Origin: Eledone cirrhosa
Taxonomy: Eukaryota
Assembly: GCA_964016885.1 (NCBI GenBank)
Contig: OZ024742.1
Span: 112,716,001 to 112,780,000 of the forward strand
Length of the DNA: 64,000 nt
Direction of reading: 5' to 3'
Shown: positions 1,176-60,587 of the stretch, in pieces
Layout: the number at the start of each line of letters is the position of its first letter
Position numbering within the stretch: the first letter of the stretch is position 1
Position numbers and translations under genes: made by a program
The notes under the pieces: generated by a model
Seen by the model: the letters and a program-made list of their open reading frames with translations, nothing else
Told to the model about the DNA's origin: nothing
Databases searched by the model: none

Positions 1176-1209
1176 GTTGAAGTGGAGTGGAAAATATGGG
1201 AAAGACCAC

Positions 1210-4512: not shown

Positions 4513-4570
4513 TAATAATAATAATAATAACAATAATAAAAAAAAAAAAAAAAATTAAAGAAAATAAGAA
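4513..4570 (+). repeat. (TAA)n and A-rich tail between B1 and A1
   Basis: taataataataataataacaataataaaaaaa... Confidence 0.9.
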
Positions 4571-8054: not shown

Positions 8055-8970
8055 TAATAACAATAACAATAATAATAATAAGAAGAAGAATAAGAAGAAG
8101 GGGAGAAGACGCACGTGGTGGTAGAAGGTCATGAAATCGCTCCCGTAAGTTTTTGATTTTTAACATTTAAATCAATTTTGAAATAACAATTCTTAGTACA
8201 AATGATGCATAAATCACCGAATCAAGTCTCATAAAAATTCGGATCCATAATATATTGTTATATCGCTCAAATATACAATTTTCTATTATATATTTTATAT
8301 TCAAAAAAGAAAATGGTTATAAATGGAAGAAAACCCCCTCTGTCTACACTATATAGAACAGCCAAATAACAGCAATTTCACCAACATCAGAAACTATATA
8401 CCCCACCTACCCCGTCACCCCGCTGTGTACACTAAATATAACAGCCAGATAACGGCAATTTCACCACCACCACCACCAATCCGAGCATCATAATAATAAT
8501 TACTATTATTATTGTCTCAAGTTTTAACAAAATGTTTAAATCCAATATTAAGAAAATTCGTCATCACATATATTAAACATACGCGACACAAACGCATAGA
8601 TACTACAGATCAAACAAAACTAGTCTATTCGACAAAACTCAGTAACGACAACGCCACCGCCGCCAACACTCCATCCATCATTGCTACCACAATCCCATCA
8701 CCGCCGCCACCACTCCTTCATTGCTACCACCACTATTCCCCTGTTAACTTAAGAAAGGGCAAGGTGGCGGTATCACTAGAAAAGGGAGAGGCTAGCAAAA
8801 GATATAAATATATTGACTTAGTGACCCGGCCAGCGGCCAAACGTCAACAACTATGGCACTGCTGGCTCCCCCCTTCCCCACCAACAATATAAGAAGCCCC
8901 AGCACCACCACCACCGACATAGCCAACAACAATAACAGGCAACTTCAGCAAAAAGTATATTATATTATTG

Positions 8971-26581: not shown

Positions 26582-26619
26582 ATTATTATTATAAAGTAGA
26601 AACAATTATTATAATTATT

Positions 26620-29600: not shown

Positions 29601-30160
29601 GCTTCGGGTGGTTCCTCCGTTCTCTAAACCTCTTCACCTTCATTTCCCACTGTCTCATTTGCCTGGCATAGTCCACTCTCCATCTCCAAGCTAATCTCTC
29701 TGCTCAGTTCCTCCAGTACCAGCTCGCTTATCCACCGATTAGTTCTTATTACCCGAGCCTGCTCGGCCAATTTTTGTTCATCTAATTTAAATAGACCAAT
29801 CTCGTTCCAGATCTTATGCATCCGTTTCCTATAGCCTTTCTCCATGGGGTTACTCTTCACGTAATATTGCATAACAGTACTATTCAATTCTTTCGTCCAG
29901 TTGGTTCTGGTTGCTTTCCTTCTTCTTCTTCCTCCGACACCAGCAGTATTTGGTTGACAGCCAGGTCCCTGCTGCTGAGCCAGGGAGCACCTGTTGGGTG
30001 AGAGTTTGTCACATGACATTCTAGTCTCCATTTCACCGTTATTCGAACTGTTTAGGTTCGACATTTAAACACTCTTATCGAGGATTGGCGAATGTCTGGT
30101 TACATGACCACCGGTGAATTCATCGTCTCCGGTGGTTTCGTCACTCCACGTGACTTTTGT
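26620..30160 (-). mobile_element. R4/Dong-clade family A, copy A2, near full length, decayed
   Basis: ORF start at 30064 (RTNWTKELN..VMQYY..GYRKRM..IW..EQKLAEQAR), then RT, CCHC and RLE fragments; tail-to-tail with T2. Confidence 0.93.
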
Positions 30161-30686
30161 GTGGCACCATCACGCTGTAGACGAATACAAATAAACACAC
30201 AAACAAACAGGCAGAAAAAACCCCAACAATGAATAAGCATAAATTTCGTTGTAATGTAGTGTTTGAATGTCTGACATTAGTTTTTCCCTTCCCTTCTCTG
30301 TCCGCCTGTTTGTTTTTCTCTTCATTCTTATTTTCTTTACGTTTTTCGTCGTTGCTGTGCTGCTTTGATTTTGATTTTGGTTTTTTTAATTTGACCGGTC
30401 TTCAATTCAGTCTATTTATATATTTTGATGCCTTCCTCTTTTAGTGAGAATTCTACAAAGTAGCAGGGGCTAGCGGGAGAGAATAGCGGCGGTAGTGATA
30501 TTGAGGCAGTTGTCGTGATGGTGGTGGTGGTGCTGTGCTAGCAGGAGGTAGTGGGAGAGATAAGCGGCGGTAGCGATAATGAGGCAGTGGTGGCGGTGAT
30601 GTGGTCGTATTACTGTAGTGATGGTGTTGAAGTTGGAGTAGAAATTTGAGTCGACTTGACCAGATTATTATTATTATTATCCAGAC

Positions 30687-30717
<31 letters not shown>

Positions 30718-30729
30718 GTTATTGTTATT

Positions 30730-33700
30730 CCTTGAATCTCAGTCATTGATGTTGGTTAACTGGAAAGTCCGTTGGATTGAATATCAAGCTACTACCTGCA
30801 GCCTCAGATATTCAGGACGTATCGGAGGGTTATTGCCGTTCCAAGCAAGCATGCCTTTTGAAGCGTTCCAAAAAGCGTGAAGGGGCCGATTTTCTTTAAC
30901 CATCCCTGGAAACCTTTGGAGATAGTCCCCAGTGCGCCTATGACAATCGGGATCACTTTGACTTCATGGCAGTTCCAAATCCTTTTCACCTCCCACTTTA
31001 GGTCCTGGTATCGGTTAATGTTCTCCCTCTCCTTCTCTTGCACTCTCGTGTCGAACGGGCAGGCCACATCCACAATCAGGCACGATCTTTTTTCTTTGTC
31101 CACAACCACCAGGTCAGGTCTATTGTGTTCCAGTTTTTTGTCCGTCTGTATCCTAAAATCCCACAGCACCTTCACCTGACTGTTCTCCATCACCGCCTCT
31201 GGCCTATGCTCATACCATCTCTCAGAATGTGGTAGATTGTTTACTTTGCACAGGTGCCAGTGGATCACCCTGCCCATCACATCGTGTCTCCAGCCCTTAT
31301 AGTGGGTCTGGGCTAGGTGTTTACACTCAGACACAATGTGAGCCACAGTCTCCTCTCTCTCTCTACAGATCCTGCACAGTGGGCTAGCCTCCTCCTTGTA
31401 GATATGGTGCTTCAACCACTTCGTTTTGAGGGCCTGCTCCTGCGCAGCCATTAGCATTCCTTCTGTAGCCTTTTTGAGGTCTCCTCTTCTCAACCAGTTC
31501 CATGTCTGTGGATATCTAAATTCAGTTTTCTCAAAGAAGGTACTATGAAGGGATTTTCCCTTAAGGCTGCTCTTCCTCCTTGATGTTATTTCCTCCTTGG
31601 ATATCCCCTGGCCTACTGTCCCCTCCTTCAGTACAGCTCTGAGCATTGGCTCCTTACTATAGGTCACGTATTTGTATAGGTTGTTTTTCTCCATCTGAAC
31701 ACAGTCCTGTATGCTGATAAGACCTCTTCCACCCTCAGATCTCCTTAGGTAGAGTCTATCGACATCACTCCTCTTGTGGAACATGTTGTAGATAGTCAAT
31801 AGCTTCCTAGTCTTCCTATCCATTTCTTTTTGTTCAGCAACATTCCATCTCAGAATTCCCGCACTGTACCTAATAATAGACACAGCTCGGGAATTTACTG
31901 CGCTTATGGCATTTCTGCTGTTCAGATGTGACTTCAATACGCTCCTTACTCTCTGAATGTATTCAGTTCTTAACAATTCCTTCATTTTTTTGTTCTTTAT
32001 GCCATCAGCCTCCAGAACGCCCAAATACTTGTATCCTTCCTCAGAGTCAATTTCCTTTATCATCTCACCTGTTGGTATCTGGATCCCGTTACTTCTGCTC
32101 AACCTACCCCTCTTCATCACAATGACTCCACATTCACCAATACCAAACTGCATACATATATCACTGCTGAAAATACGGACAGTGTCAACAAGCACATCCA
32201 ACTCCTTCTCACTTTTCCCGAAGAGCTTAAGATCGTCCATGAAGAGGAGGTGATTGATGGTAAGCTCTCCCCTTCCCAACTTGTATCCTGCTCTCACTTT
32301 TCGCAGCATAATGGTCAAGGGCATCAGGGCAAGGACAAACAACAGAGGGGACAGGCTATCTCCCTGGAAGATACCTCTCTTGATCTTCACGCTTCCCAAG
32401 GATACTCCAGTTGTTGTCAACTCTGTCTCCCAGAACCCCATACTCCTGCCCAGCAACTGTCTGATGTTATCTGCCACCCTGAAGATCTCCAGGCTTTTGG
32501 TGATCCAGGAATGAGGCACCATGTCAAATGCCTTTCTGTAGTCTATCCATCCCATGGCAAGATCAGTGTGTCTCCTCCTGCAATTCCCCATTACCATCTT
32601 ATCAATAAGCAACTGGTCCTTTGTACCACGTGACTTCTTTCGGCATCCTTTCTGTTCGTCCGGTAACAAGTTGTTTGTGTGGAGGTGATGGTAGATTTCC
32701 TCAGACACAATGCTCGTCAACAGTTTCTACATTACGGGCAGACATGTGATAGGTCTATAGTTGGTAACATCATTACCCTTGATTCGGTCTTTCATTATCA
32801 GAACTGTGGTACTTTTTGTCAACCACTCTGGCACCTCACCCGACACCAAGCAGTCATTGAACATGGCCGTCAGCTTCGGGTGGAGGGATGTTAAATGTTT
32901 AATCCAATACCCCTGCACACCATCTGGGCCTGGTGATTTCCAGTTGGTTAGTTTTTTGGCTTGCCCCTTAAGAGTTTCAACTGTGATACTCAAATCAGTC
33001 TGTTGTTGTGCCTGCTCACCGATCTCCCTCTGTACTGTCTCAATCCACCCTGCCTGGGCATTGTGTCTAACATCCTGCTCCCATATTCCTCTCCAGAATG
33101 TTTTAGCTTGTTCCGCCCCAGGGATCAAGTCGTTGCCTCTTTCTTTCCCCTCAAGCTGTCCAAACAGCATCTTCTGGTTGTTGTCGAACATGCGGTTCTG
33201 TTTATACTGACTGACTCTGTTCTCGTATCGCCTGATTTTGGCACTCTTTGCTACAATGCGTTGCTTCAATTCCTCTATGATAATATTTAGCTTTTTACTC
33301 CTAGTTTTGTATTTTATTTCCAGTCTATTTTTAGTGCCTATGTATTTTAGTGTCCCATTCTGTAGTGACTCAAGCTTTCCTATGTCATTTCTCATTTCCC
33401 CGATTTGCCCACTCAGTCGCTTCTTCCACCACGGCTCTGCTCTTTCTTGTCTGTTGTTTCCTCTCGCTTTTATACCAAGTAGTTTCCTCACCGTATTTGC
33501 TGTTTCTTTGAGGATATTGTTGCACTGGTGAAGACTCCTCGCCTCAAGGTATGGGATGACTTTGTTTACCTTAGCTGTAGTTTCTTTTAACTTTTCCCTG
33601 TCTACAAATCTTAGGTTCATAGGTCTCCCACTATCATTGTTCAACTCATCTACCACTAAATTTAGGATGTCAACCGAATCTTGTCCTAGACCGTCAGCAT

Positions 33701-33838
33701 TCATCTCCTCAGTGGCCGTATCTCTGTTCCAGGTATTATTTATCTCAGTATTCAGATCATTGTCTGCTTCGGGTGGTTCCTCCGTTCTCAGGACCTCCTC
33801 ACCTTCATTTCCCGCCGGCTCGCTTGTCTGGCATACTA

Positions 33839-33840
<2 letters not shown>
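30730..33840 (-). mobile_element. R4/Dong-clade family A, copy A3, 5'-truncated, young
   Basis: ORFs 32727-33974 and 30804-32720 are in one frame, separated by a single TAG; (TAA)n on both sides. Confidence 0.95.
30804..33840 (-). pseudogene. R4 family A RT-CCHC-RLE ORF with one nonsense codon
   Basis: [52 protein letters not shown]; the TAG at 32727 is TGG in A1 and A2. Confidence 0.9.
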
Positions 33841-33886
<46 letters not shown>

Positions 33887-33900
33887 TATTATTATTATTA
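33841..33900 (-). repeat. (TAA)n tract between B3 and A3
   Basis: About 20 units. Confidence 0.97.
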
Positions 33901-35878
33901 CAGTTGCATTTATCTTGCTTTATGTTCATACGAGTTATCACCAAGACACAACCAGTGACCTCAAGAGACAACAAGGTCCGCCATGTTCAAGAAAGAACAT
34001 ACATATTCACACATGCATCTTTAGTGTTTAGACTGGTGATGTACTTATGTTGACAAAATCTTCCTTAGTATATGGGCAGTTCCCATTAATACTCTCTTTT
34101 GTATTTCTTCTATACGCGGGTTTCCTGGGATTTGCGATATGTAATCATTAGACCCCTTAGGTATCATTCCCAGAGCGCCTACAACCACTGGTATGTTTTA
34201 GTTCTCAATTTCCAAATTTTTCCAATTTCTATCTCCAGGTCCTTATACTTGCTCAATTGTTCAAATGTTTTTATAGATACATTCTTGTCTATTGGAACAG
34301 ACATATCAATTAGCAGGCATACCCTCTTTTGAAAGTCCTTCAATATTATATCAGGTCTGTTTGCATCTATTTTTCGGTCTGTTTGGATGCTAAAGTTCCA
34401 CAAGATTGAGATGTGATCTTTTTCAAGTATGGGAGGTGGTTGATGCTCACACCAATTCTTTTGATGGGGCAGGTCAATATGCTTACACATTATCCAATGT
34501 ATGTATTGTGCAGCTCTGTCATGCCTGTTTAGGTATTCGGTTGGAGCTATAGGACTACACATTGAAATTATATGGTCAATGGTCGCTGGTTGTTTTTTAC
34601 ATACACGGCATAATGGGCTGCACCAATTTTTTATTATGTTGGCTTGGTAATTTTTTGTTGGCAGACACTGATCTTGTGCCGATATAATCAGTCCTTCAGT
34701 CTCCGATTTCAGTCCAGAGGATGCCAACCACTGATGGGTTAAAGTTTTGTCAACATCAGGATTGTTAGCTCGCTCTGGGTATTTTCCATACAGAGGCTTT
34801 TCTTGCCATTTCTTAGCCAGTTTCTGTAGCAGTTCTTTCTTTGCAGTTACTTTTACCTGCTTTGCCTTTTCTGTGTTTTCCATTTCAGCAGTAAATGGGA
34901 CTTCAGGAATGTGTAGTCCATTACTGTATCTTTGTGCATATTTTGTAATGGAGTATCTTTTGATGCTTTCGTGTTTCAAAACGAGTTTGATCATCCAATC
35001 ATGTGATTCCCTTAGATATGTAGATAATCCAATTGTTGCAGTTTTCAACGCAATGTATAACTGGATTAACCCACGTCCTCCTTCTTTCCTAGGGAGATAT
35101 ATTCTATCTATATCTGCCTTAGGGTGATGCATTCTGTGCATGGTTAAGAATTTTCGGATTTTTTTATCGAGCCTACGGACCTCTGTGCTTGACCAGTTGA
35201 TGACATAGTAACTGTAGGTTACTACTGGTATGGCAATCGTGTTTATGGCATCGATCCTATTCCTTGCATTCAATTCCGTTCTTAAGATTGCTCTTACTCT
35301 GCGGTAACATTCCTTCCTTATCCTTTCCCTCATTGTCGAGTGCTTGATTCCGTCTCCTTCACAAACACCTAGATATTTGTAAGTTTTTTCTTGATCAAGT
35401 TCTCTTATCACGTTCCCCCGATCAAGATTAATGTCTGAACTCTTCAGCAGCTTTCCTCTGGTGAACGTTGCTTTGGCGCATTTGTCTAGTCCAAACTCCA
35501 TTTTAATGTCATCACTGAACTGCTTCACAGTGGATAATATCCCTTGCAATTGTTCATCATTTTTTGCAAATAGTTTCAGGTCATCCATGTGGAACAGGTG
35601 ATTAATGGTTTTGTCATAGATTTTATATCCATGTTTTGTTTCATTGAGCATTTTACTTAATGGTATAAGTGCGATGCAGAATAAAAGCGGTGATAAAGAG
35701 TCAACCTGAAAAATTCCACATTTAATATTAACTTCTCCAGCTTCCAGTGATTTTGTTTCACTATTCAAAAGGAGTGTCGTTTTCCATGTCTTCATACTTG
35801 AATGACAAAAACCTCCTGACAATGGGGGATACTTTGAACATCTCTAAACATTTTTCAATCCAACTGTGTGGCAAACTA
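33901..35878 (-). mobile_element. R4/Dong-clade family B, copy B3, 5'-truncated
   Basis: 547-aa ORF 34179-35822 with RT, CCHC and RLE; same 3' UTR as B1; frameshifts near both ends. Confidence 0.94.
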
Positions 35879-36110
35879 TTATTATTATTATTATTGAATG
35901 CCATGGTTGACGGAGGCTCGGCTCTGTAAGGTATAGTAATTTTTAACCGATAAAACAATTGTGAATTGTTTAAAACTTGAACCAAATTGTTGATAAAGAC
36001 ACCCTCCTCCTCGTGAGAAGGGTCTTTCTGTCCGTTATTTGGCCCTTCGGAGTTAAATAACCAGTTATTGGGGTTTTGTACCCAAAATTTCATTTTAAAC
36101 AAAAAACAAC

Positions 36111-38184
36111 ATGGCTACGACAAAGAAATTTCATACGTCACTCCCACTCATTCCGTCTTCTTCTTCCTCAATCATCACTACAGCAGAGAGAAGATTGTCT
36201 CTCTCCCTCCCTTCTTTAAATGTGTCTCTCTCCCTCCCTTCTCTTTCGCAAGTGACGAAAGAAAAGAAAAGTCTCGTGCAAAGCGTGCAAGGTTTCTCCA
36301 CGACGACGACGACAGCGACGAAACAGGTGTGCGGGAAATACGAAAACCCAGTTCATTCGTCTGACGTCAGGAATAATAGCAGTAGCAGCCGTAATAACAA
36401 CAGCAACAGTGACAATGAAAACAACAGTAGCAGCCGCAACAGCATCACCAGCAGCATAAACAACAACAGCATTAGCAGCAGCAACACCAACAACAACCAC
36501 AGCAACAGCGGCGGAGGCAGTAGTCGTAGTACCTGCAGCAACAACAAAAGTACCAGCAACTCTGACGACAACAACAACAGCAGAGAAAAACCAATCTCAT
36601 TTGCAGGTATTGCGAAAAACTTGGAAACAATCCTCATAACAAATGAGGAATTAGAGGAAGCGAAGAAGATGGTGACAAAGAACGGACACCGAGCAATCTG
36701 CAAGGCAGCGGAAAAAATTTTCGAAACGCAAGAGCACTGTACGGTCACGTACCGTACAGTAAGTACAAAATCCCGTAGGGTGGAAAGAGCCACAGAGGCC
36801 CAAATACAAAAAGCCTTGGGGTTTGTGTGACAGCGGAAAACGCACATCACCCGAGGCAAAAAATATGCCACCGTAGACGTACTTTTTGCCACACCCCAGG
36901 AGGCAAAGTCCCAATCAGTAGTGACCCTAAGGAGCGAGGAAATGGTGTTGGTGCCCTCCTACTGCGGGCAAAAAAATTGTGAGGGTCAAACTGACCCACG
37001 TCCCCCCCGGAATGAGCCCTTCTTGGCTGGCCGCGTCTGTCCTCGTCGGAATCGAGGACAAAACAACTGTACTGCAAGTACAGAGAAAAGTAAGAGAAGA
37101 TTGGGTCGGCTCCTCCATTGAGATGCTAATCCAAACCAACCAGGAGTGCGTCGAAGCTATCCCGGATGTGATAGACTTCGATAACGGCACTCAACTGCCC
37201 ATAAGTGTTGAGGGCAAACGCCCGAAATGCTTTCGCTGTGGATCGAAGACTCACCTCAGGGGCTTCTGCAACGAGAAGACCCTGAGAAAGGAGAAAACCC
37301 CCCTCCTTCCGAATCCGGCTCCACGGCTACCAGCAACAGGACAAGCGGCAACCAGGAACGATAGGTCCGTGGCACCCATACCCACTCCACAGAAATCAAA
37401 AACAGCAGCAGCAGTGGAAATATTAACAACAACGACAGCAATACCAAATGCAGCTGCAACAGAGACTCCAGTGCAAACATCACCAACAACAACAAGTGAA
37501 AGAGTGGAGCTGGTACCCCTCCCCGACCTCACAGAATCAGACATGGAGTGTGAGGTGGGAGAGGGATGGCAAAAGGTCGCAAGAAGGCACAAACGCAGAA
37601 GCAGCGCATCGTCGCCTTTGAAAAGGGAGGAAAGAAATGAGAAAAGGGTAAAGTCTACTGCAAAGAGACCCACAGCAGCAACACCGGCACCACCATCACC
37701 ACCGGCGACAACCCCACCGCCAACAACACCTTCAACACCACCACCACAAGCACCAACATCGCAAACACAACAACAAAACACACACACCCAGCAACAACGA
37801 CAAGAAAATAGCAGAACCACACCCCACCCCCAGAAAAACAAATGCACGGCAATAAACACACACAACAAGAAACTAATGACTTACATAATTGAACACACAG
37901 ACATTTCACAACAGGACTACATAATACCAGCACCAATCAAAACGCCAACTAACATAAGACTGCTAAAAATAGCACAGAAACAATACACAAATATTAAAAC
38001 GAAATTTCCCAACGCAGTTGGTGATTTCAGGGACCTAGGAGGAACCATTAATCGAAGAGTATATTCAGACATTCTCTTAGAAGAGCCGACGACCAGCCGA
38101 AGGGACGATTCAACGGTCCCTTCACCAGACGATCAAGTGAAAAGGGATGTAAAAACCATCCCTCCTCTACCAAAAATACGGTAA
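36111..38184 (+). pseudogene. Tx1 ORF1 (Asn/Ser-rich N-terminus, RRM-like region, CFRCGSKTHLRGFC knuckle, Pro/Thr linker), with one stop and one frameshift
   Basis: The TGA at 36828 and the extra A at 36970-36976 are TGG and in-frame sequence in T1. Confidence 0.88.
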
Positions 38185-38219
38185 GTGGTCTTTCCCATCT
38201 TTTCCACTCTATTTTAAAC

Positions 38220-41200
38220 ATGACCTCACTCAGAATAGGCAGCATAAATGCGCGTGGCTTGGGGTCGTCATGGAAGCAGGGTCACCTGCTCAACGACCTC
38301 AGGTCACTAAACATAGATGTAGTGGCCATCAGCGAGACCAGAATCTCCGAAGCACGGGCCTTCGCACCGATCTTCGGCGGCTACGATGTGTACGCATCTC
38401 CCAGCCGTCCTGGATCCGGTGGAGGAGTTGCTGTACTTTTTCGGAGAGGTTTGGATCTCGCCATACGGGCCATCTTCCTGGACCCAGAGGGTAAGCTGGT
38501 GGTGCTGGACGTGACCAGCGGAGACGGGCAAGCTTTCAGGCTAGTGGCCGTCTATGCCCCGACAGGAGCAGGGCGGCCTGATTTCTTCCGGCGTCTGGAG
38601 ACCTTTCTTGGAACGTCCCGCTCTTTAGTGTTAGTGGGCGACTGGAACGGGATCTTAGATGCACGCTGGGACTGTGTGGGATTAGCGGATAGGGGTGGAG
38701 GGTGCAAGAGCCTCACCAACCTGCTCAGGCGTTTTGAACTGTCTGACAGGTACCGATTGGATTTCCCGAATGTGCCAATGTGGACTTGGACAAACCGCAT
38801 AGGGTCATCCAGATCATATCTAGATAGAGTATTTTGTAGGGAAATAGATAGGTCTAGCATAGGCTGTCCACAATTCAAGATAGTCAGCTACACGGACCAC
38901 AAATTCGTGATCTGTGTGCTTGACTTAGATAGGCTTCATAGACGAGGACCCGGCTACTGGAAGCTAAACGCGTCCTTACCAGCGCGCAAGGCCTACAGAG
39001 ACCGGATTAGCGAACTAGTTAAGCGGGCGTTGACGGGGGCCATCGTCAACAACAAGTGGTGGTTTGCTCTGAAAAGAGCGATTAGAATAGAATCGATTAG
39101 GTTTAGTAAGGCTTTAGCAATAGAGAAAAATAGAGCAGAGGGAGAACTAGTTAGAAAATTAGACGAGGCGCTTAGCAAAGGCATTGCGACCGACGTGCTT
39201 GCGGCGAAATTGGCCCTTGACCAATTCTTCAATGCAAAGCACGAAGGCTGCGTTGTCAGAGCTAGGGTGCGTGCTCTCAGACACGAGGGGACGAAAGCCG
39301 TTCAATGGGCCCGAGTGGCGGAGGCGCGTCGTGGCAACAAAGCCACGATCCGGTCTTTGGTGGACCACGACGGGCGCATGCTACTCGATCCCGGGCAAAT
39401 GTGTGAAGCTTTTCAGCGACACTTCGCTCAGCTGTTCGGGGGCAGCGGGGGGCCGGGTAGAGGGATGGACTTTAGTGTCTACCTCGACGGGCTGCCGCGG
39501 CTCTCGGCCACTGAGGCGAGGTGTTGCGAAAAGCCGATAACAGCCGCTGAAGTACGGGAGGCAATGACTGGCTGCACAAGGGGTAAATCGCCTGGTTTGG
39601 ATGGTCTGCCCTATGAACTTTACGTACAGATGCCAGACTTGTTCGGAGGCCTCTTGGCGGACGTCTACTGCAACTGGCAACAGAACGGGAGAATTCCCAG
39701 TTCTGTGAGCCGAGGAGCGGTGGCACTGCTGAGAAAGGATCCGAACAAGGGGGATAACATAGACAATTTCCGGCCCATAACTCTGCTAAACACAGAGTTT
39801 AAGATTTTGGCCAAGGTGCTAGCAAAGAGGTTGGCGCTTGTCGTTGGTGGTCTGGTGGGAGAGGCGCAGACATGCGCCATTCCCGACAGATCCATCCACG
39901 ACAACCTCCACCTCATGCGATACATCGTAGAGAGGGTAGCTAGGGAACCTGGCACGGGTGGGTCCTTGATCAATTTAGATCAGTCGAAAGCTTTCGATAG
40001 GGTCGACCATCGTTACCTAGCGGCAGTCCTGAGGGCGGCTGGCTTTGGGCCCGTCTTCAGAGGCTGGATCGCTGCCATGCACAGCGACATCTGCTCTGTG
40101 GTGAGAGTGAACGGTCACCTGTCGGAACCGTTCAACATCATGCGCTCGGTCCGCCAAGGATGTCCCCTCTCGTCCCTCTTGTACGTATTGACTCTCGAGC
40201 CATTACTGCACAAACTGGAGACGTTGAGGGGAGTCCCGCGCGAACTAGGATGCGGAAGATCCGTGTCAGCATATGCGGACGATGTCACCGTAGTGGTGTC
40301 GAACGCCAAACACATCGAGGCGATCGGCACTACACTAAGAGAATACGAAGCGGTGACAGGAGCAATGATCAACCAGGAAAAGTCAGTGGGCCTGCAGCTC
40401 GGCACCTGGAGAGGCAGGTCCATGCCGTCCAACAGCGTCGTCGGGCGCTGGACGGACGGACCGGTTAAATTGCTAGGGGTCTGGTTCGGTCCGGACCTCC
40501 AGACGGACAAAAACTGGGACGAGGTGACGAGCAGGGTGGCTTCTCTCACCCAGAAATGGGCGGAGAGGAAGCTATCCCTGAAAGGTCGAGCGGAGGTGGC
40601 TAACGCGTACATCGCGTCTGTCATCTGCTACCGCCTAACCGTCGTACCTTGTCCTAAGCCTCGCCTGACTGCGCTGGAGCGTTTGCTCTTTCGCTTTTTG
40701 TGGAAGGGACGTGCTCCGATGGTCAGGCGGTCCATCTGTTGTCAACACCCGCTACGTGGAGGGCTGGGCATGCCGTGGCTGATGATGCGCAGGCACGCGC
40801 TCAGGCTACGACATCTCCACCTCTTCCTCGACGGTGATCAGGTGTGGTCGCCGTTTGCTAGACGCGTTTTTCCCCAGCTCGTTTCCTTGACGGAGCTGCA
40901 GTCCTGGGTCAAGCGAAGACCGAGAGGGAGCGCCTGGAGACTGGAATGTCTTCAGGCGCTCACAGCCCTCGACCAATCGGGCAATGTGATCGGTGGAAAC
41001 TCCACCTCGGCGTTCTATAGAGGATTAGTGGAGGGGAAGAGCGACGACGTACTTGGGGAAACTCTAGGCGTCGACGAAAATCAACTAGCCAATCTCTTCG
41101 GAAGAACTTTCGGGCCAGGGCCTATGGACAACTTCCAGAAATCTCTGGCCTGGCAGTGCTACCGAGGAGCCTTGCCAGTTCGGGATAAACTCTACAGGCA

Positions 41201-41639
41201 TGGAGGTGCCGTCAGCCGGGCATGTCCGAGATGCGCGCAGGGCGACGAAACCGTCCTGCACGCACTCGTCCAGTGTCCGAAAATTGCTGACTTGTGGGTT
41301 TATGTCGAACACCTGCTGTCGCGTTTAGGACGGATCCAGCTATCATCTGAGTCCATCGTGAGGATTGCCCCGCCCTCCTCCTTTAGCCGGGAAGGGCAGG
41401 CAGTTTTTATCTGTCTGGTGGCCATGGCGAAAGAGATAGTATGGTGGACACGTTTGAAAGGGCTGAAGACGAGCACTTACCTCTTCGGTGATGCTCTGAT
41501 TGACTTTTTCAAATTTCATTTGAAAAGGAAAATCAGAGTAGAGAGGGAAGTGCTCTCTTCCCAGCATTTTGTTGAAAGATGGGTGAGAGAAGCAAGAATG
41601 GCCCGAGTGAATGGGCCGACTCTGAGTATATATCTGTAA
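38220..41639 (+). CDS. Tx1 ORF2: APE endonuclease + reverse transcriptase + C-terminal CCHC, intact (1139 aa)
   Basis: SINARG, SETR, GDWN, SYLDR, TDH; KSPGLDG, FRPITLLN, DQSKAFDRV, RQGCPLS, YADD; CPRC..DETVLHALVQC. Confidence 0.96.
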   Translation: MTSLRIGSINARGLGSSWKQGHLLNDLRSLNIDVVAISETRISEARAFAPIFGGYDVYASPSRPGSGGGVAVLFRRGLDLAIRAIFLDPEGKLVVLDVTSGDGQAFRLVAVYAPTGAGRPDFFRRLETFLGTSRSLVLVGDWNGILDARWDCVGLADRGGGCKSLTNLLRRFELSDRYRLDFPNVPMWTWTNRIGSSRSYLDRVFCREIDRSSIGCPQFKIVSYTDHKFVICVLDLDRLHRRGPGYWKLNASLPARKAYRDRISELVKRALTGAIVNNKWWFALKRAIRIESIRFSKALAIEKNRAEGELVRKLDEALSKGIATDVLAAKLALDQFFNAKHEGCVVRARVRALRHEGTKAVQWARVAEARRGNKATIRSLVDHDGRMLLDPGQMCEAFQRHFAQLFGGSGGPGRGMDFSVYLDGLPRLSATEARCCEKPITAAEVREAMTGCTRGKSPGLDGLPYELYVQMPDLFGGLLADVYCNWQQNGRIPSSVSRGAVALLRKDPNKGDNIDNFRPITLLNTEFKILAKVLAKRLALVVGGLVGEAQTCAIPDRSIHDNLHLMRYIVERVAREPGTGGSLINLDQSKAFDRVDHRYLAAVLRAAGFGPVFRGWIAAMHSDICSVVRVNGHLSEPFNIMRSVRQGCPLSSLLYVLTLEPLLHKLETLRGVPRELGCGRSVSAYADDVTVVVSNAKHIEAIGTTLREYEAVTGAMINQEKSVGLQLGTWRGRSMPSNSVVGRWTDGPVKLLGVWFGPDLQTDKNWDEVTSRVASLTQKWAERKLSLKGRAEVANAYIASVICYRLTVVPCPKPRLTALERLLFRFLWKGRAPMVRRSICCQHPLRGGLGMPWLMMRRHALRLRHLHLFLDGDQVWSPFARRVFPQLVSLTELQSWVKRRPRGSAWRLECLQALTALDQSGNVIGGNSTSAFYRGLVEGKSDDVLGETLGVDENQLANLFGRTFGPGPMDNFQKSLAWQCYRGALPVRDKLYRHGGAVSRACPRCAQGDETVLHALVQCPKIADLWVYVEHLLSRLGRIQLSSESIVRIAPPSSFSREGQAVFICLVAMAKEIVWWTRLKGLKTSTYLFGDALIDFFKFHLKRKIRVEREVLSSQHFVERWVREARMARVNGPTLSIYL

Positions 41640-41924
41640 ACTAAAGGTGGAAAACTGGGAGAGGGCACTTGCCTTGGTGGTCAGGGTCATTGTGGCTTTT
41701 TACTGGGCTTTCTCCACAAATGTCCCTCCGAAGTCTCCCCCCTATTGGGGAATTTTTCATTGTTATTTTCATTGTTATTTTTGTTACATCCTCTGTTTTT
41801 GTTTTTTTACACGCAGAAATGCCCATTTGTACCGTCCTGCATTGTCCTGCACTGTCCTTAATGTCTACTTTATGTAAACCCTTGTGGTTAATAAAGAAAT
41901 CATTATTATTATTATTATCCAGAC

Positions 41925-41955
<31 letters not shown>

Positions 41956-41967
41956 GTTATTGTTATT

Positions 41968-44900
41968 CCTTGAATCTCAGTCATTGATGTTGGTTAACTG
42001 GAAAGTCCGTTGGATTGAATATCAAGCTACTACCTGCAGCCTCAGATATTCAGGACGTATCGGAGGGTTATTGCCGTTCCAAGCAAGCATGCCTTTTGAA
42101 GCGTTCCAAAAAGCGTGAAGGGGCCGATTTTCTTTAACCATCCCTGGAAACCTTTGGAGATAGTCCCCAGTGCGCCTATGACAATCGGGATCACTTTGAC
42201 TTCATGGCAGTTCCAAATCCTTTTCACCTCCCACTTTAGGTCCTGGTATCGGTTAATGTTCTCCCTCTCCTTCTCTTGCACTCTCGTGTCGAACGGGCAG
42301 GCCACATCCACAATCAGGCACGATCTTTTTTCTTTGTCCACAACCACCAGGTCAGGTCTATTGTGTTCCAGTTTTTTGTCCGTCTGTATCCTAAAATCCC
42401 ACAGCACCTTCACCTGACTGTTCTCCATCACCGCCTCTGGCCTATGCTCATACCATCTCTCAGAATGTGGTAGATTGTTTACTTTGCACAGGTGCCAGTG
42501 GATCACCCTGCCCATCACATCGTGTCTCCAGCCCTTATAGTGGGTCTGGGCTAGGTGTTTACACTCAGACACAATGTGAGCCACAGTCTCCTCTCTCTCT
42601 CTACAGATCCTGCACAGTGGGCTAGCCTCCTCCTTGTAGATATGGTGCTTCAACCACTTCGTTTTGAGGGCCTGCTCCTGCGCAGCCATTAGCATTCCTT
42701 CTGTAGCCTTTTTGAGGTCTCCTCTTCTCAACCAGTTCCATGTCTGTGGATATCTAAATTCAGTTTTCTCAAAGAAGGTACTATGAAGGGATTTTCCCTT
42801 AAGGCTGCTCTTCCTCCTTGATGTTATTTCCTCCTTGGATATCCCCTGGCCTACTGTCCCCTCCTTCAGTACAGCTCTGAGCATTGGCTCCTTACTATAG
42901 GTCACGTATTTGTATAGGTTGTTTTTCTCCATCTGAACACAGTCCTGTATGCTGATAAGACCTCTTCCACCCTCAGATCTCCTTAGGTAGAGTCTATCGA
43001 CATCACTCCTCTTGTGGAACATGTTGTAGATAGTCAATAGCTTCCTAGTCTTCCTATCCATTTCTTTTTGTTCAGCAACATTCCATCTCAGAATTCCCGC
43101 ACTGTACCTAATAATAGACACAGCTCGGGAATTTACTGCGCTTATGGCATTTCTGCTGTTCAGATGTGACTTCAATACGCTCCTTACTCTCTGAATGTAT
43201 TCAGTTCTTAACAATTCCTTCATTTTTTTGTTCTTTATGCCATCAGCCTCCAGAACGCCCAAATACTTGTATCCTTCCTCAGAGTCAATTTCCTTTATCA
43301 TCTCACCTGTTGGTATCTGGATCCCGTTACTTCTGCTCAACCTACCCCTCTTCATCACAATGACTCCACATTCACCAATACCAAACTGCATACATATATC
43401 ACTGCTGAAAATACGGACAGTGTCAACAAGCACATCCAACTCCTTCTCACTTTTCCCGAAGAGCTTAAGATCGTCCATGAAGAGGAGGTGATTGATGGTA
43501 AGCTCTCCCCTTCCCAACTTGTATCCTGCTCTCACTTTTCGCAGCATAATGGTCAAGGGCATCAGGGCAAGGACAAACAACAGAGGGGACAGGCTATCTC
43601 CCTGGAAGATACCTCTCTTGATCTTCACGCTTCCCAAGGATACTCCAGTTGTTGTCAACTCTGTCTCCCAGAACCCCATACTCCTGCCCAGCAACTGTCT
43701 GATGTTATCTGCCACCCTGAAGATCTCCAGGCTTTTGGTGATCCAGGAATGAGGCACCATGTCAAATGCCTTTCTGTAGTCTATCCATCCCATGGCAAGA
43801 TCAGTGTGTCTCCTCCTGCAATTCCCCATTACCATCTTATCAATAAGCAACTGGTCCTTTGTACCACGTGACTTCTTTCGGCATCCTTTCTGTTCGTCCG
43901 GTAACAAGTTGTTTGTGTGGAGGTGATGGTAGATTTCCTCAGACACAATGCTCGTCAACAGTTTCTACATTACGGGCAGACATGTGATAGGTCTATAGTT
44001 GGTAACATCATTACCCTTGATTCGGTCTTTCATTATCAGAACTGTGGTACTTTTTGTCAACCACTCTGGCACCTCACCCGACACCAAGCAGTCATTGAAC
44101 ATGGCCGTCAGCTTCGGGTGGAGGGATGTTAAATGTTTAATCCAATACCCCTGCACACCATCTGGGCCTGGTGATTTCCAGTTGGTTAGTTTTTTGGCTT
44201 GCCCCTTAAGAGTTTCAACTGTGATACTCAAATCAGTCTGTTGTTGTGCCTGCTCACCGATCTCCCTCTGTACTGTCTCAATCCACCCTGCCTGGGCATT
44301 GTGTCTAACATCCTGCTCCCATATTCCTCTCCAGAATGTTTTAGCTTGTTCCGCCCCAGGGATCAAGTCGTTGCCTCTTTCTTTCCCCTCAAGCTGTCCA
44401 AACAGCATCTTCTGGTTGTTGTCGAACATGCGGTTCTGTTTATACTGACTGACTCTGTTCTCGTATCGCCTGATTTTGGCACTCTTTGCTACAATGCGTT
44501 GCTTCAATTCCTCTATGATAATATTTAGCTTTTTACTCCTAGTTTTGTATTTTATTTCCAGTCTATTTTTAGTGCCTATGTATTTTAGTGTCCCATTCTG
44601 TAGTGACTCAAGCTTTCCTATGTCATTTCTCATTTCCCCGATTTGCCCACTCAGTCGCTTCTTCCACCACGGCTCTGCTCTTTCTTGTCTGTTGTTTCCT
44701 CTCGCTTTTATACCAAGTAGTTTCCTCACCGTATTTGCTGTTTCTTTGAGGATATTGTTGCACTGGTGAAGACTCCTCGCCTCAAGGTATGGGATGACTT
44801 TGTTTACCTTAGCTGTAGTTTCTTTTAACTTTTCCCTGTCTACAAATCTTAGGTTCATAGGTCTCCCACTATCATTGTTCAACTCATCTACCACTAAATT

Positions 44901-45076
44901 TAGGATGTCAACCGAATCTTGTCCTAGACCGTCAGCATTCATCTCCTCAGTGGCCGTATCTCTGTTCCAGGTATTATTTATCTCAGTATTCAGATCATTG
45001 TCTGCTTCGGGTGGTTCCTCCGTTCTCAGGACCTCCTCACCTTCATTTCCCGCCGGCTCGCTTGTCTGGCATACTA

Positions 45077-45078
<2 letters not shown>
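41968..45078 (-). mobile_element. R4/Dong family A, copy A4 (duplicate of A3)
   Basis: Translations identical to A3, including the TAG. Confidence 0.95.
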
Positions 45079-45124
<46 letters not shown>

Positions 45125-45138
45125 TATTATTATTATTA

Positions 45139-47116
45139 CAGTTGCATTTATCTTGCTTTATGTTCATACGAGTTATCACCAAGACACAACCAGTGACCTC
45201 AAGAGACAACAAGGTCCGCCATGTTCAAGAAAGAACATACATATTCACACATGCATCTTTAGTGTTTAGACTGGTGATGTACTTATGTTGACAAAATCTT
45301 CCTTAGTATATGGGCAGTTCCCATTAATACTCTCTTTTGTATTTCTTCTATACGCGGGTTTCCTGGGATTTGCGATATGTAATCATTAGACCCCTTAGGT
45401 ATCATTCCCAGAGCGCCTACAACCACTGGTATGTTTTAGTTCTCAATTTCCAAATTTTTCCAATTTCTATCTCCAGGTCCTTATACTTGCTCAATTGTTC
45501 AAATGTTTTTATAGATACATTCTTGTCTATTGGAACAGACATATCAATTAGCAGGCATACCCTCTTTTGAAAGTCCTTCAATATTATATCAGGTCTGTTT
45601 GCATCTATTTTTCGGTCTGTTTGGATGCTAAAGTTCCACAAGATTGAGATGTGATCTTTTTCAAGTATGGGAGGTGGTTGATGCTCACACCAATTCTTTT
45701 GATGGGGCAGGTCAATATGCTTACACATTATCCAATGTATGTATTGTGCAGCTCTGTCATGCCTGTTTAGGTATTCGGTTGGAGCTATAGGACTACACAT
45801 TGAAATTATATGGTCAATGGTCGCTGGTTGTTTTTTACATACACGGCATAATGGGCTGCACCAATTTTTTATTATGTTGGCTTGGTAATTTTTTGTTGGC
45901 AGACACTGATCTTGTGCCGATATAATCAGTCCTTCAGTCTCCGATTTCAGTCCAGAGGATGCCAACCACTGATGGGTTAAAGTTTTGTCAACATCAGGAT
46001 TGTTAGCTCGCTCTGGGTATTTTCCATACAGAGGCTTTTCTTGCCATTTCTTAGCCAGTTTCTGTAGCAGTTCTTTCTTTGCAGTTACTTTTACCTGCTT
46101 TGCCTTTTCTGTGTTTTCCATTTCAGCAGTAAATGGGACTTCAGGAATGTGTAGTCCATTACTGTATCTTTGTGCATATTTTGTAATGGAGTATCTTTTG
46201 ATGCTTTCGTGTTTCAAAACGAGTTTGATCATCCAATCATGTGATTCCCTTAGATATGTAGATAATCCAATTGTTGCAGTTTTCAACGCAATGTATAACT
46301 GGATTAACCCACGTCCTCCTTCTTTCCTAGGGAGATATATTCTATCTATATCTGCCTTAGGGTGATGCATTCTGTGCATGGTTAAGAATTTTCGGATTTT
46401 TTTATCGAGCCTACGGACCTCTGTGCTTGACCAGTTGATGACATAGTAACTGTAGGTTACTACTGGTATGGCAATCGTGTTTATGGCATCGATCCTATTC
46501 CTTGCATTCAATTCCGTTCTTAAGATTGCTCTTACTCTGCGGTAACATTCCTTCCTTATCCTTTCCCTCATTGTCGAGTGCTTGATTCCGTCTCCTTCAC
46601 AAACACCTAGATATTTGTAAGTTTTTTCTTGATCAAGTTCTCTTATCACGTTCCCCCGATCAAGATTAATGTCTGAACTCTTCAGCAGCTTTCCTCTGGT
46701 GAACGTTGCTTTGGCGCATTTGTCTAGTCCAAACTCCATTTTAATGTCATCACTGAACTGCTTCACAGTGGATAATATCCCTTGCAATTGTTCATCATTT
46801 TTTGCAAATAGTTTCAGGTCATCCATGTGGAACAGGTGATTAATGGTTTTGTCATAGATTTTATATCCATGTTTTGTTTCATTGAGCATTTTACTTAATG
46901 GTATAAGTGCGATGCAGAATAAAAGCGGTGATAAAGAGTCAACCTGAAAAATTCCACATTTAATATTAACTTCTCCAGCTTCCAGTGATTTTGTTTCACT
47001 ATTCAAAAGGAGTGTCGTTTTCCATGTCTTCATACTTGAATGACAAAAACCTCCTGACAATGGGGGATACTTTGAACATCTCTAAACATTTTTCAATCCA
47101 ACTGTGTGGCAAACTA
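45139..47116 (-). mobile_element. R4/Dong family B, copy B4 (duplicate of B3)
   Basis: Translations identical to B3. Confidence 0.94.
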
Positions 47117-47133
47117 TTATTATTATTATTATT

Positions 47134-50100
47134 GAATGCCATGGTTGACGGAGGCTCGGCTCTGTAAGGTATAGTAATTTTTAACCGATAAAACAATTGT
47201 GAATTGTTTAAAACTTGAACCAAATTGTTGATAAAGACACCCTCCTCCTCGTGAGAAGGGTCTTTCTGTCCGTTATTTGGCCCTTCGGAGTTAAATAACC
47301 AGTTATTGGGGTTTTGTACCCAAAATTTCATTTTAAACAAAAAACAACATGGCTACGACAAAGAAATTTCATACGTCACTCCCACTCATTCCGTCTTCTT
47401 CTTCCTCAATCATCACTACAGCAGAGAGAAGATTGTCTCTCTCCCTCCCTTCTTTAAATGTGTCTCTCTCCCTCCCTTCTCTTTCGCAAGTGACGAAAGA
47501 AAAGAAAAGTCTCGTGCAAAGCGTGCAAGGTTTCTCCACGACGACGACGACAGCGACGAAACAGGTGTGCGGGAAATACGAAAACCCAGTTCATTCGTCT
47601 GACGTCAGGAATAATAGCAGTAGCAGCCGTAATAACAACAGCAACAGTGACAATGAAAACAACAGTAGCAGCCGCAACAGCATCACCAGCAGCATAAACA
47701 ACAACAGCATTAGCAGCAGCAACACCAACAACAACCACAGCAACAGCGGCGGAGGCAGTAGTCGTAGTACCTGCAGCAACAACAAAAGTACCAGCAACTC
47801 TGACGACAACAACAACAGCAGAGAAAAACCAATCTCATTTGCAGGTATTGCGAAAAACTTGGAAACAATCCTCATAACAAATGAGGAATTAGAGGAAGCG
47901 AAGAAGATGGTGACAAAGAACGGACACCGAGCAATCTGCAAGGCAGCGGAAAAAATTTTCGAAACGCAAGAGCACTGTACGGTCACGTACCGTACAGTAA
48001 GTACAAAATCCCGTAGGGTGGAAAGAGCCACAGAGGCCCAAATACAAAAAGCCTTGGGGTTTGTGTGACAGCGGAAAACGCACATCACCCGAGGCAAAAA
48101 ATATGCCACCGTAGACGTACTTTTTGCCACACCCCAGGAGGCAAAGTCCCAATCAGTAGTGACCCTAAGGAGCGAGGAAATGGTGTTGGTGCCCTCCTAC
48201 TGCGGGCAAAAAAATTGTGAGGGTCAAACTGACCCACGTCCCCCCCGGAATGAGCCCTTCTTGGCTGGCCGCGTCTGTCCTCGTCGGAATCGAGGACAAA
48301 ACAACTGTACTGCAAGTACAGAGAAAAGTAAGAGAAGATTGGGTCGGCTCCTCCATTGAGATGCTAATCCAAACCAACCAGGAGTGCGTCGAAGCTATCC
48401 CGGATGTGATAGACTTCGATAACGGCACTCAACTGCCCATAAGTGTTGAGGGCAAACGCCCGAAATGCTTTCGCTGTGGATCGAAGACTCACCTCAGGGG
48501 CTTCTGCAACGAGAAGACCCTGAGAAAGGAGAAAACCCCCCTCCTTCCGAATCCGGCTCCACGGCTACCAGCAACAGGACAAGCGGCAACCAGGAACGAT
48601 AGGTCCGTGGCACCCATACCCACTCCACAGAAATCAAAAACAGCAGCAGCAGTGGAAATATTAACAACAACGACAGCAATACCAAATGCAGCTGCAACAG
48701 AGACTCCAGTGCAAACATCACCAACAACAACAAGTGAAAGAGTGGAGCTGGTACCCCTCCCCGACCTCACAGAATCAGACATGGAGTGTGAGGTGGGAGA
48801 GGGATGGCAAAAGGTCGCAAGAAGGCACAAACGCAGAAGCAGCGCATCGTCGCCTTTGAAAAGGGAGGAAAGAAATGAGAAAAGGGTAAAGTCTACTGCA
48901 AAGAGACCCACAGCAGCAACACCGGCACCACCATCACCACCGGCGACAACCCCACCGCCAACAACACCTTCAACACCACCACCACAAGCACCAACATCGC
49001 AAACACAACAACAAAACACACACACCCAGCAACAACGACAAGAAAATAGCAGAACCACACCCCACCCCCAGAAAAACAAATGCACGGCAATAAACACACA
49101 CAACAAGAAACTAATGACTTACATAATTGAACACACAGACATTTCACAACAGGACTACATAATACCAGCACCAATCAAAACGCCAACTAACATAAGACTG
49201 CTAAAAATAGCACAGACACAATACACAAACATTAAAACGAAATTCCCCAACGCAGTTGGTGATTTCAGGGACCTAGGAGGAACCATCAATCGAAGAGTAT
49301 ATTCAGACATTCTCTTAGAAGAGCCGACGACCAGCCGAAGGAACGATTCAACGGTCCCTTCACCAGACGATCAAGTGAAAAGGGATGTAAAAACCATCCC
49401 TCCTCTACCAAAAGTACGGTAAGTGGTCTTTCCCATCTTTTCCACTCTATTTTAAACATGACCTCACTCAGAATAGGCAGCATAAATGCGCGTGGCTTGG
49501 GGTCGTCATGGAAGCAGGGTCACCTTCTCAACGACCTCAGGTCACTAAACATAGATGTAGTGGCTATCAGCGAGACCAGAATCTCCGAAGCACGGGCCTT
49601 CGCACCGATCTTCGCCGGCTACGATGTGTACGCATCTCCCAGCCGTCCTGGATCGGGTGGAGGAGTTGCTGTGCTTTTTCGGAGAGGTTTGGATCTCGCC
49701 ATACGGGCCATCTTCCTGCACCCAGAGGGTAAGCTGGTGGTGCTGGACGTGACCAGCGGAGACGGGCAAGCTTTCAGGCTAGTGGCCGTCTATGCCCCAA
49801 CAGGAGCAGGGCGGCCTGATTCTTCCGGCGTCTGGAGACCTTTCTTGGAACGTCCCGCTCTTTAGTGTTAGTGGGCGACTGGAAAGGGATCTTAGATGCA
49901 CGCTGGGACTGTGTGGGATTAGCGGATAGGGGTGGAGGGTGCAAGAGCCTCACCAACCTGCTCAGGCGTTTTGAAATGTCTGACAGGTACCGATTGGATT
50001 TCCCGAATGTGCCAATGTGGACTTGGACAAACCGCATAGGGTCATCCAGATCATATCTAGATAGAGTATTTTGTAGGGAAATAGATAGGTCTAGCATAGG

Positions 50101-53419: not shown

Positions 53420-53614
53420 ATAGGAACCAGTAAGACCCCGACGGCTGAGCTCAAGCCGTTTCGACGGCTAATTCTGGACTAAGAATTAGCCGTCGAAACG
53501 GCTTGAGCTCAGCCGTCGGGGTCTTACTGGTTCCTATTACCCACTCTACTACCCCAAGTATTGAGTACTCTGGTGCGTTATGGTCCACCTGGTTCCTTAC
53601 CACATTTTCTTCGT
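53420..53614 (+). mobile_element. Short Penelope-like remnant with a perfect fold-back (56-bp arms), inserted in (TA)n
   Basis: Arms 53420-53475 and 53482-53537; the right arm reads stem-GAAA-stem-GTC; the tail recurs at 18535. Confidence 0.55.
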
Positions 53615-54588: not shown

Positions 54589-54649
54589 TATTACACTTGC
54601 GTCTCAAAAATCGATGTTCGAGGTAATTGTATATATATATATATATATA

Positions 54650-54705
54650 TCTACATATATCTATCAATCTATCTATCTATCTATCTCTCTATCTATCTAT
54701 CTATG

Positions 54706-54754
<49 letters not shown>

Positions 54755-54766
54755 GTCTGTCTGTCT
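54650..54766 (+). repeat. (ATCT)n microsatellite, 5' flank of T5
   Basis: Direct sequence. Confidence 0.95.

Positions 54767-60391: not shown

Positions 60392-60587
<196 letters not shown>

Follow-up and report, generated by a model that had tools for sequence, protein, structure and literature searches.

An exact 7.3-kb duplication and a chimeric Tx1-like retrotransposon at an ATT tract, with a candidate origin in a single retrotransposition event

How can a block of 7.3 kb come to stand twice, unchanged to the last base, on either side of a 3.9-kb 3' segment from a younger Tx1-like element? The question is raised by a nest of non-LTR retrotransposons in the window, the whole stretch of 64,000 nucleotides analysed here, in which the two copies lie as follows:

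30664..37978, no strand assigned: left copy of the exact duplication (A3, B3 and the 5' part of T3), 0/7315 differences
41902..49216, no strand assigned: right copy (A4, B4 and the 5' part of T4), starting at the junction of the T3 3' end with ATT

Direct comparison of the two copies, at an offset of 11,238, gave no mismatch in 7315 bp, which bears out the identity claimed for these intervals in the original prediction, and the bases flanking the identity block (30663 and 37979) are both mismatched against the other copy. The 7315 bp form an upper bound for the length of the duplication, the point of switch between element types lying somewhere in 36977-37978. At the difference rate found downstream, 103 differences would be expected in 7315 bp, 29 of them in the T part, and none was observed; the identity takes in two long ATT tracts, microsatellite lengths included. 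Judged by a divergence of under 0.04%, the duplication is very recent.

The T copies are of a two-ORF element. Its ORF2 has the domains PF03372, PF00078 and PF13966, i.e. an N-terminal APE endonuclease and an RT, plus a C-terminal CCHC motif, and its best PDB matches are human L1 ORF2p (E 3e-52). ORF1 has no Pfam match; the translation of 36931-38184 contains a gag-like CX2CX4HX4C knuckle, which is a feature of the Tx1 clade. By its ORF structure and motifs the element is classed as Tx1-like (L1 group); none of 33 homologues bears a name, and the Atlas clusters are likewise without a clade label. The parts of T3 and T4 were delimited as follows:

35896..37978, plus strand: 5' part of T3, identical to T4 by sequence comparison; 5' UTR and ORF1 (ATG at 36111)
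36977..37978, plus strand: interval of the switch from T4-type to young-type, from the last common ORF1 lesion to the first difference
37979..41901, plus strand: 3' part of T3, 3923 bp of a younger lineage; end of ORF1, intact ORF2, complete 3' UTR
47134..52842, plus strand: T4, a resident decayed Tx1-like copy by sequence comparison, its 3' end absent past 52842

Two lesions break ORF1 in T3 and T4 alike, one a TGA at 36828-36830 and the other a frameshift in the A7 run at 36970-36976. The ORF2 of T3 (38220-41639, 1139 aa) is open with every catalytic motif present, so that T3 has the broken ORF1 of T4 together with an intact ORF2, as had been claimed for it. All three ORF2-breaking lesions are in T4 and none is in T3: two deletions, of 1 bp near 49819 and of 4 bp near 51178, and a TGA at 52528-52530. 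The 3' UTR of T3 (41610-41901) is missing from T4 and is therefore of other origin. With the ORF1 lesions of T4 in its 5' part and an intact ORF2 in its 3' part, T3 is on these grounds a chimera of decayed T4 (5') and a younger lineage (3'). The switch is in register and without an indel and, at a difference density of 1.4%, probably falls within about 200 bp of 37979. Carrying a broken ORF1 beside its intact ORF2, the chimera is predicted to be unable to move alone and is probably non-autonomous; at most it would be predicted to provide ORF2 protein in trans.

Past 37978, T3 and T4 differ by 49 substitutions and 2 indels in 3631 bp (98.6% identity). The original prediction had let identity end inside ORF1; exact identity does stop at 37978, but homology does not, continuing at 98.6% to 41609/52842, where T4 is 3'-truncated. 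The 14 differences counted there in 37979-38585 were recovered (13 substitutions and one 1-bp indel, with 8 changes synonymous), but these 8 of 14 fail as proof of two lineages, since the excess is local to the first 607 bp (8/13, against 8/36 in the remainder) and the overall share of 16/49 is not above the neutral expectation of about 27% (p=0.23). Two separate lineages are indicated instead because lesions and amino-acid changes are asymmetric. When amino-acid changes were polarised by P0001, 21 of 24 fell on the T4 branch (p=0.0003, with 9/33 left unpolarised). Outgroup polarisation with T1 and T2 placed 18 non-synonymous against 4 synonymous changes on the T4 branch, and 3 against 7 on that of T3 (Fisher p=0.013, with 17/49 sites unpolarised), a synonymous excess on the T3 branch that leans on T2 (79% identical, saturated sites), T1 alone giving 3/4 versus 3/10 (p=0.24). 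Site 39100 is polarised in opposite ways by T1 and P0001, and polarisation of 37979-38104 with T1 was dropped because the ORF1 of T1 is too diverged in that part. At the level of sequence comparison, the asymmetry is real evidence for the separation of the lineages.

The same data bear on whether the whole 11.2-kb unit could have been duplicated in tandem long ago, after which it decayed, T4 lost its 3' end and gene conversion recently acted on 7.3 kb. Such a history would allow both the even spread of differences across 37979-41609 (KS p=0.53) and a synonymous share that, taken overall, lies close to the neutral value. It predicts symmetric decay, however, where 21:3 amino-acid changes and 3:0 lesions are seen; T3 and T4 have the ORF1 lesions in common and the ORF2 lesions not; and the conversion tract would need to stop exactly at the unit boundary. 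We regard this history as exceedingly improbable. Mosaic conversion patches were not detected in the 3' part of T3 (longest identical gap 408 bp; same KS test).

The ATT tracts and the passenger elements of the block are placed as follows:

30664..30729, plus strand: putative priming site at the left end of the duplication, an interrupted (ATT)n tract that is the 3' tail/target of A3
30730..33839, minus strand: A3, a 5'-truncated RLE-type (Dong/R4-like) non-LTR element with an in-frame stop at 32727-32729 (RVT_1)
33840..35877, minus strand: B3 with its ATT tract (33840-33900), a second 5'-truncated RLE-type family, frameshifted near the C-terminus (RVT_1, translation)
35878..35895, plus strand: (ATT)6 abutting the 5' end of the Tx1-like element

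The passengers A and B each have a single ORF with RT, CCHC and a C-terminal RLE, and are inserted in TAA repeats; the translation of A3 shows RT, a CCHC knuckle and a PD..D RLE motif, with R2 proteins as best PDB matches (E 1e-19). Dong elements are of the R4 clade and RLE type. As far as the accessible part of the source describes them, Dong elements target TAA microsatellites (PMC3812793), and A and B resemble them in their RT, CCHC knuckle, C-terminal RLE motif and position in TAA/ATT tracts; they differ in being passengers rather than drivers of the duplication, and their putative Dong/R4 assignment comes from motifs.

The AATAAA-containing 3' end of T3 stops at 41901 and the right copy begins directly after it at 41902, at the first ATT of the tract, just where the original prediction had placed the start. 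This complete 3' end joins precisely the base at which the duplication begins on the left, 30664 corresponding to 41902, and the interruption of the tract was found at 30676 and 41914 only. The 3' end of T2 likewise adjoins the ATT tail of an A copy, and the 5' ends of T1 and T4 adjoin ATT tracts. In this small sample, four of the six Tx1-like ends in the window abut ATT (T1 5', T3/T4 5', T2 3', T3 3') and the two that do not are truncated ends (T2 5', T4 3'); all 13 ATT/AAT runs of at least 4 units in the window sit at ends of A, B or T copies. By this comparison, the 41901/41902 junction is of the normal type for the Tx1-like family. Contigs of a related sample (2 runs, one sample) show an ATT tract joined to a 5'-truncated copy at 41633. 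Microsatellite-targeting families of the Tx1 clade, as given in the accessible part of PMC4494074, are Kibi at (TC)n, Koshi at (TTC)n and crocodilian families at (TTCC)n/(TTTC)n, and the present element is like them in having two ORFs, an APE-RT-CCHC ORF2 and an end in a microsatellite; it differs in its (ATT)n target, common to the Dong-like elements in opposite orientation. An ATT-targeting Tx1 family was not found in a search confined to the literature.

The account that we favour, with moderate confidence, is that the ATT tract served as priming site for a young element, whose cDNA then invaded T4 downstream, duplicating the 7315-bp block in one event. The starting allele would have been X-A-B-T4-Y. 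At 30664, an active ATT-targeting element would have cut one strand of the ATT tail of A, and its own RNA would then have been reverse-transcribed there from the 3' end, giving the junction now seen. After about 4 kb, the 3' end of the cDNA would have paired with T4 (98.6% identical, some 7 kb downstream), either in cis or on the sister chromatid, at a point in 36977-37978 where the chimera changes type. From there, DNA synthesis, whether by strand displacement or as break-induced replication, would have continued through the T4 5' end and on through B and A until it reached the nick again, re-copying A and B as passengers and adding a net 11,238 bp. A switch at the RNA level to a local read-through transcript was set aside, as it requires a 7-kb transcript ending exactly at the nick.

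The one-step joining of cDNA had been part of the original prediction, and its chimera, its recency and its ATT 3' junction all stand; a single step is likeliest, but the same sequence would be left by an ordinary young insertion at the ATT tract followed by unequal crossing-over with T4 on an empty homologue. The T copies, 98.6% identical over kilobases, offer non-allelic recombination a workable substrate; the end structure would be the same, with 41901/41902 as a normal 3' junction. We consider this two-step route unlikely: it takes its copies from two homologues, yet there are 0/7315 differences, microsatellite lengths included, and the empty allele that it calls for would have to be identical by descent. 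Had sisters exchanged instead, a T copy would stand to the left of 30664, where there is none. On heterozygosity of the host, the sole hint comes from another sample, in which one 213-bp contig shows 1 difference.

As the Tx1-like element lacks a poly(A) tail, its junction with ATT also fits DNA-level microhomology. Without any reverse transcription, synthesis could in principle have departed from T4, used the 3' part of a young copy at another site as template and come back to 30664 via ATT microhomology; since Tx1-like copies are flanked by ATT, the 3' flank of the donor would supply the microhomology, and yeast is known to switch templates between diverged repeats, according to the accessible part of PMC4215184. 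Such a course is improbable, as two switches are required, the return must hit the first of several nearby ATT runs while keeping the entire 5-unit run, and no donor flank lies between the T3 3' end and the tract. Its donor would moreover have an intact young-type ORF2, as expected for a transcribed source.

Reads were sought for 29680-41960 in 4 of 19 listed runs (two Hi-C runs and two contig runs of one related sample). The Hi-C runs placed 0 reads in this interval and have no bearing on the junctions. The contig runs gave short contigs dominated by other family copies, with no bridge over the junctions or the switch among the pieces listed; the element families reached summed depths of 9,000-620,000, and a single substitution row was obtained, polarising none of the T3/T4 differences. 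Because the test reached no spanning reads, both the DNA-templated route and an assembly artefact keep a small probability. In the latter, empty and young-insertion haplotypes would have been joined inside the element, or a collapsed repeat traversed twice; a reused consensus would also yield zero differences over 7.3 kb, and the region is, by its contig depths, a dense nest of high-copy repeats. Against this, T3 and T4 are cleanly apart over 3.6 kb with all lesions on one side, which a collapsed consensus would blur; a misjoin by exact overlap needs long identity, and 1 kb without a difference at 1.4% has a chance of 8e-7; the window contains no N; and even so the 41901/41902 junction must be a real young insertion. 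We hold an artefact to be rather unlikely, slightly less so than the DNA-templated route. A threefold step in contig depth near 38290 was rejected as evidence for the switch, fitting instead 5' truncation or an ORF2 common to subfamilies. The related-sample contigs have one base fewer at 36970 (depth 11,000-12,000). A loose contig end at 30664 has no continuation within the window. Searches for related loci gave 14 pattern matches in metagenome contigs, 0 of them confirmed, and none in viral contigs; the Rfam search gave 0 matches.

L1 retrotransposition-mediated chimeras and large target-site duplications were reportedly obtained in cultured cells by Gilbert et al. in 2005. An elongating de novo L1 recombines with a resident L1, and target-site duplications (TSDs) reach up to 5.3 kb, in the accessible part of Servant et al. 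(PMC5223499), where the large TSDs are not described as homology-joined; the size here is 6.3-7.3 kb. The L1 chimeras (HeLa, NER-deficient cells) in such accounts share a de novo 3' end at the endonuclease target, a 5' end joined to a resident element through homology and a kb-scale target duplication, and differ in that the present case is a natural assembled locus, a microsatellite-targeting Tx1-like element without poly(A), and a duplication instead of a deletion. In tumours and clones, tandem duplications of 1-10 kb at L1 TPRT sites are treated as large TSDs (10.1101/2024.12.14.628481), and 14/152 bridges are duplication-like (10.1101/2024.08.27.596794), again from the accessible parts of these sources; they are alike in size range and in the notion that break-induced synthesis starting at one TPRT site yields a large TSD, and unlike in being somatic human events with no chimera with a resident element stated there. 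Kilobase duplications driven by retrotransposons and old/young chimeras are thus already documented in cultured cells and tumours. Features of the L1-chimera type found here are the complete 3' end at the family target, the duplication starting from the 3' junction and the in-register join of old 5' to young 3'; a base-resolved natural case for a Tx1-like element was not found in the literature search.

If reads confirm it, the locus shows an L1-type outcome in an animal-type genome in which the parent copy and the two junctions are still present, and suggests that microsatellite-targeted nests grow by duplication as well as by insertion, and how ORF1/ORF2 recombinants could arise. The impact on the host is likely nil, because the duplicated DNA holds only decayed elements and the chimera is probably non-autonomous. 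More speculatively, shared microsatellite targeting may build nests of Tx1 copies a few kb apart, so that capture of cDNA by a resident might be a routine germline outcome, duplicating multi-kb blocks and pairing the resident promoter and ORF1 with an incoming ORF2, and hence the way in which this family swaps ORF1; we put this forward as a doubtful possibility. Were it true, the locus at 30664-49216 would be a swap caught just after it happened. Between T1 and T3, identity steps near 38136 from only about 60-70% in ORF1 to 91-96% in ORF2, the pattern to be expected of an older swap.

Self-comparison of the window confirmed that 30664-37978 recurs at 41902-49216, with 0 mismatches over 7315 bp at an offset of 11,238, as the original prediction had held. 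The block is composed as follows:

30664-30729 (left copy): interrupted (ATT)n tract, at the start of the block
next, minus strand: 5'-truncated copies of families A and B
next: (ATT)6 run
last, plus strand: 5' 2.08 kb of a T-family element (T3 on the left, T4 on the right)

Beyond the block, 37979-41609 and 49217-52842 shared 98.6% identity, with 49 substitutions plus one indel of 1 bp and another of 4 bp over 3631 bp. Had the identical block diverged at this downstream rate, it should show 103 differences, 29 of them in the Tx1-like part, against 0 seen (p about 2e-13 for the Tx1-like part); divergence between the left and right blocks is at most 0.04% (95% upper bound).

Two lesions within the identical block break ORF1 of T3 (ATG at 36111): a TGA (36828-36830) and a frameshift in an A7 run (36970-36976). 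The homologous ORF1 of T1, another copy, reads through at both places, and contigs of a related sample have one base fewer at 36970. T3 ORF2 has 1139 open codons and all 12 of the motifs checked, whereas that of T4 has two frameshifts and one stop, and its 3' end is missing after 52842. T4 breaks off at 52842/52843, about 30 bp short of the ORF2 stop, and no ATT tract follows; a deletion or an insertion may account for the break. Using the outgroup homologue P0001 (79% identical), 21 of 24 polarised amino-acid changes fell on T4 (p=0.0003; 9 of 33 unassigned). With T1 and T2 as outgroups, T4 carried 18 non-synonymous against 4 synonymous changes, and T3 carried 3 against 7 (Fisher p=0.013; 17 of 49 unassigned). 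Silent sites are, however, saturated in T2, T1 as sole outgroup gave no significant branch contrast (p=0.24), and the outgroups disagree on the direction of one site. Two lineages had previously been argued from synonymous differences; our recount agreed on 14 differences in 37979-38585, 8 of them synonymous, but the 16 of 49 found overall do not exceed the neutral 27% (p=0.23).

What stands firm in these alignments is the asymmetry: T4 decayed and the 3' part of T3 did not. Had the duplication been older and followed by conversion, decay should be symmetric; this reading is disfavoured as highly improbable. That T3 is a chimera is well supported, and its switch from T4-type to young-type sequence falls after the last lesion that both copies carry and before the first position at which they differ (36977-37978), which puts the duplicated target at 6.3-7.3 kb. 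An assembly artefact is judged quite unlikely; the sequence itself argues against one in that T3 and T4 are cleanly separated and that a 1-kb identical overlap at the switch has a chance of 8e-7. Whatever artefact were assumed, a young element would still have to be inserted at the ATT tract. Because its ORF1 is broken and L1-group elements require ORF1 protein in cis, T3 is probably not autonomous.

A and B encode a reverse transcriptase (RT), a CCHC knuckle and a C-terminal restriction-like endonuclease motif, and the best solved relatives of A are R2 proteins; from their predicted products they look like Dong elements, a group of the R4 clade. TAA repeats are described as the target of Dong elements (PMC3812793). 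T encodes an ORF1 with a zinc knuckle and an ORF2 with an APE endonuclease, RT and CCHC, the best PDB matches of ORF2 being human L1 ORF2p; it is likely a member of the Tx1 clade, and none of the 33 homologues found carries a name. Each of the 13 ATT/AAT runs in the window that have at least 4 units marks an end of an A, B or T copy, and four of the six T-family ends seen there adjoin ATT, the other two being truncated. The ATT tail of one A copy meets the 3' end of T2, just as A4, in the right block, meets T3; 41901/41902 is thus a normal 3' junction for the family. That A copy, A2 (26583-30250), is a near full-length Dong-like element, with the T2 3' end sitting in its tail. Tx1 families are reported in (TC)n, (TTC)n, (TTCC)n and (TTTC)n by Kojima (PMC4494074), and no ATT-targeting Tx1 was found in a literature search that covered largely open-access papers.

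The retrotransposition-mediated origin first proposed is also the simplest history and can be set out from a starting allele X-A-B-T4-Y, X and Y being the flanks. A young T would nick the ATT tail of A and reverse-transcribe about 4 kb; its cDNA, on the right-hand arm, would pair with T4 about 7 kb downstream, and extension would run back across the 5' end of T4, then B, then A, until it reached the nick; strand displacement would achieve this within one chromatid, break-induced synthesis on the sister. Such a history accounts for the position of the left end of the duplication at the 3' junction, for the other end lying in register within T, and for the identity of the copies. The two junctions and the chimeric structure are observed; priming, invasion of T4 and a single-event origin are what we infer from them, as a moderately probable account. 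The same sequence would result if a young element inserted in the ordinary way and an empty homologue then took part in an unequal exchange, but this requires two homologues identical over 7.3 kb and is unlikely. DNA-templated insertion through ATT microhomology requires two switches and is very unlikely.

The proposed mechanism, capture of cDNA by a resident copy, is already known from L1; its setting here is new. L1 chimeric duplications were reportedly seen by Gilbert et al. in 2005. Servant et al. describe recombination of elongating L1 with resident L1, giving deletions, and target-site duplications of up to 5.3 kb in NER-deficient cells (PMC5223499). Tandem duplications of 1-10 kb at target-primed reverse transcription sites have been taken as large target-site duplications (bioRxiv 10.1101/2024.12.14.628481), and duplication-like bridges made up 14 of 152 in a report that also cites an SDSA-like model for templated insertions (bioRxiv 10.1101/2024.08.27.596794); PMC10760644 and PMC1920257 added little. 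No natural germline case combining chimera and duplication was found in the largely open-access literature searched.

Four of the 19 listed runs, two Hi-C runs and two contig sets from one related sample, were compared with 29680-41960. The Hi-C runs placed 0 reads there, and the contig sets held the T, A and B families at very high depth. Among the 15 joints listed (74 further), nine ran from a point inside A to an ATT tract and one ran from an ATT tract into a T truncated at its 5' end, in support of a common target; none of the listed contig pieces from these two sets bridged the junctions of the duplicated locus. Contigs of runs X7 and X9 matched up to 30664 and then ran on for 8-11 other letters with no counterpart at a corresponding position of the window; these may represent the site as it was before A3 (the left-block A) inserted, or a paralogous repeat.

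Between T1 (1-3360) and T3 (35896-39399), ORF2 is 91-96% identical in 200-bp bins and ORF1 about 60-70%, with a step near 38136. ORF1 homology rests on tblastx (34-61% amino-acid identity), gapped DNA identity alone being no higher than in shuffled controls. An older swap of ORF1 may explain the pattern, although an ORF1 that evolves faster could give the same contrast. If capture of cDNA by nearby copies were common in these nests of elements, a rather doubtful premise, it would drive both duplication and ORF1 swaps.

An independent nest at 1-8096 (minus orientation) has the order A-B-ATT-T of the duplicated block, but its elements are truncated at other points and its T belongs to another subfamily; it is convergent nesting through the common target and no older duplication. 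Its A1 contains a 182-bp repeat (4872-5053), possibly a SINE, with a second copy, 86% identical, at 13307-13487. T5 (54640-60583), a more distant Tx1-like copy that is 69% identical to T3 in DNA, carries (TATC)n in place of ATT, in tracts close to the 5' end and immediately at the 3' end, so that one window holds two related lineages with different microsatellite targets. Additionally, the flank right of T4 contains a 118-bp near-perfect palindrome (53420-53537; 95%), possibly a small inverted-repeat element.
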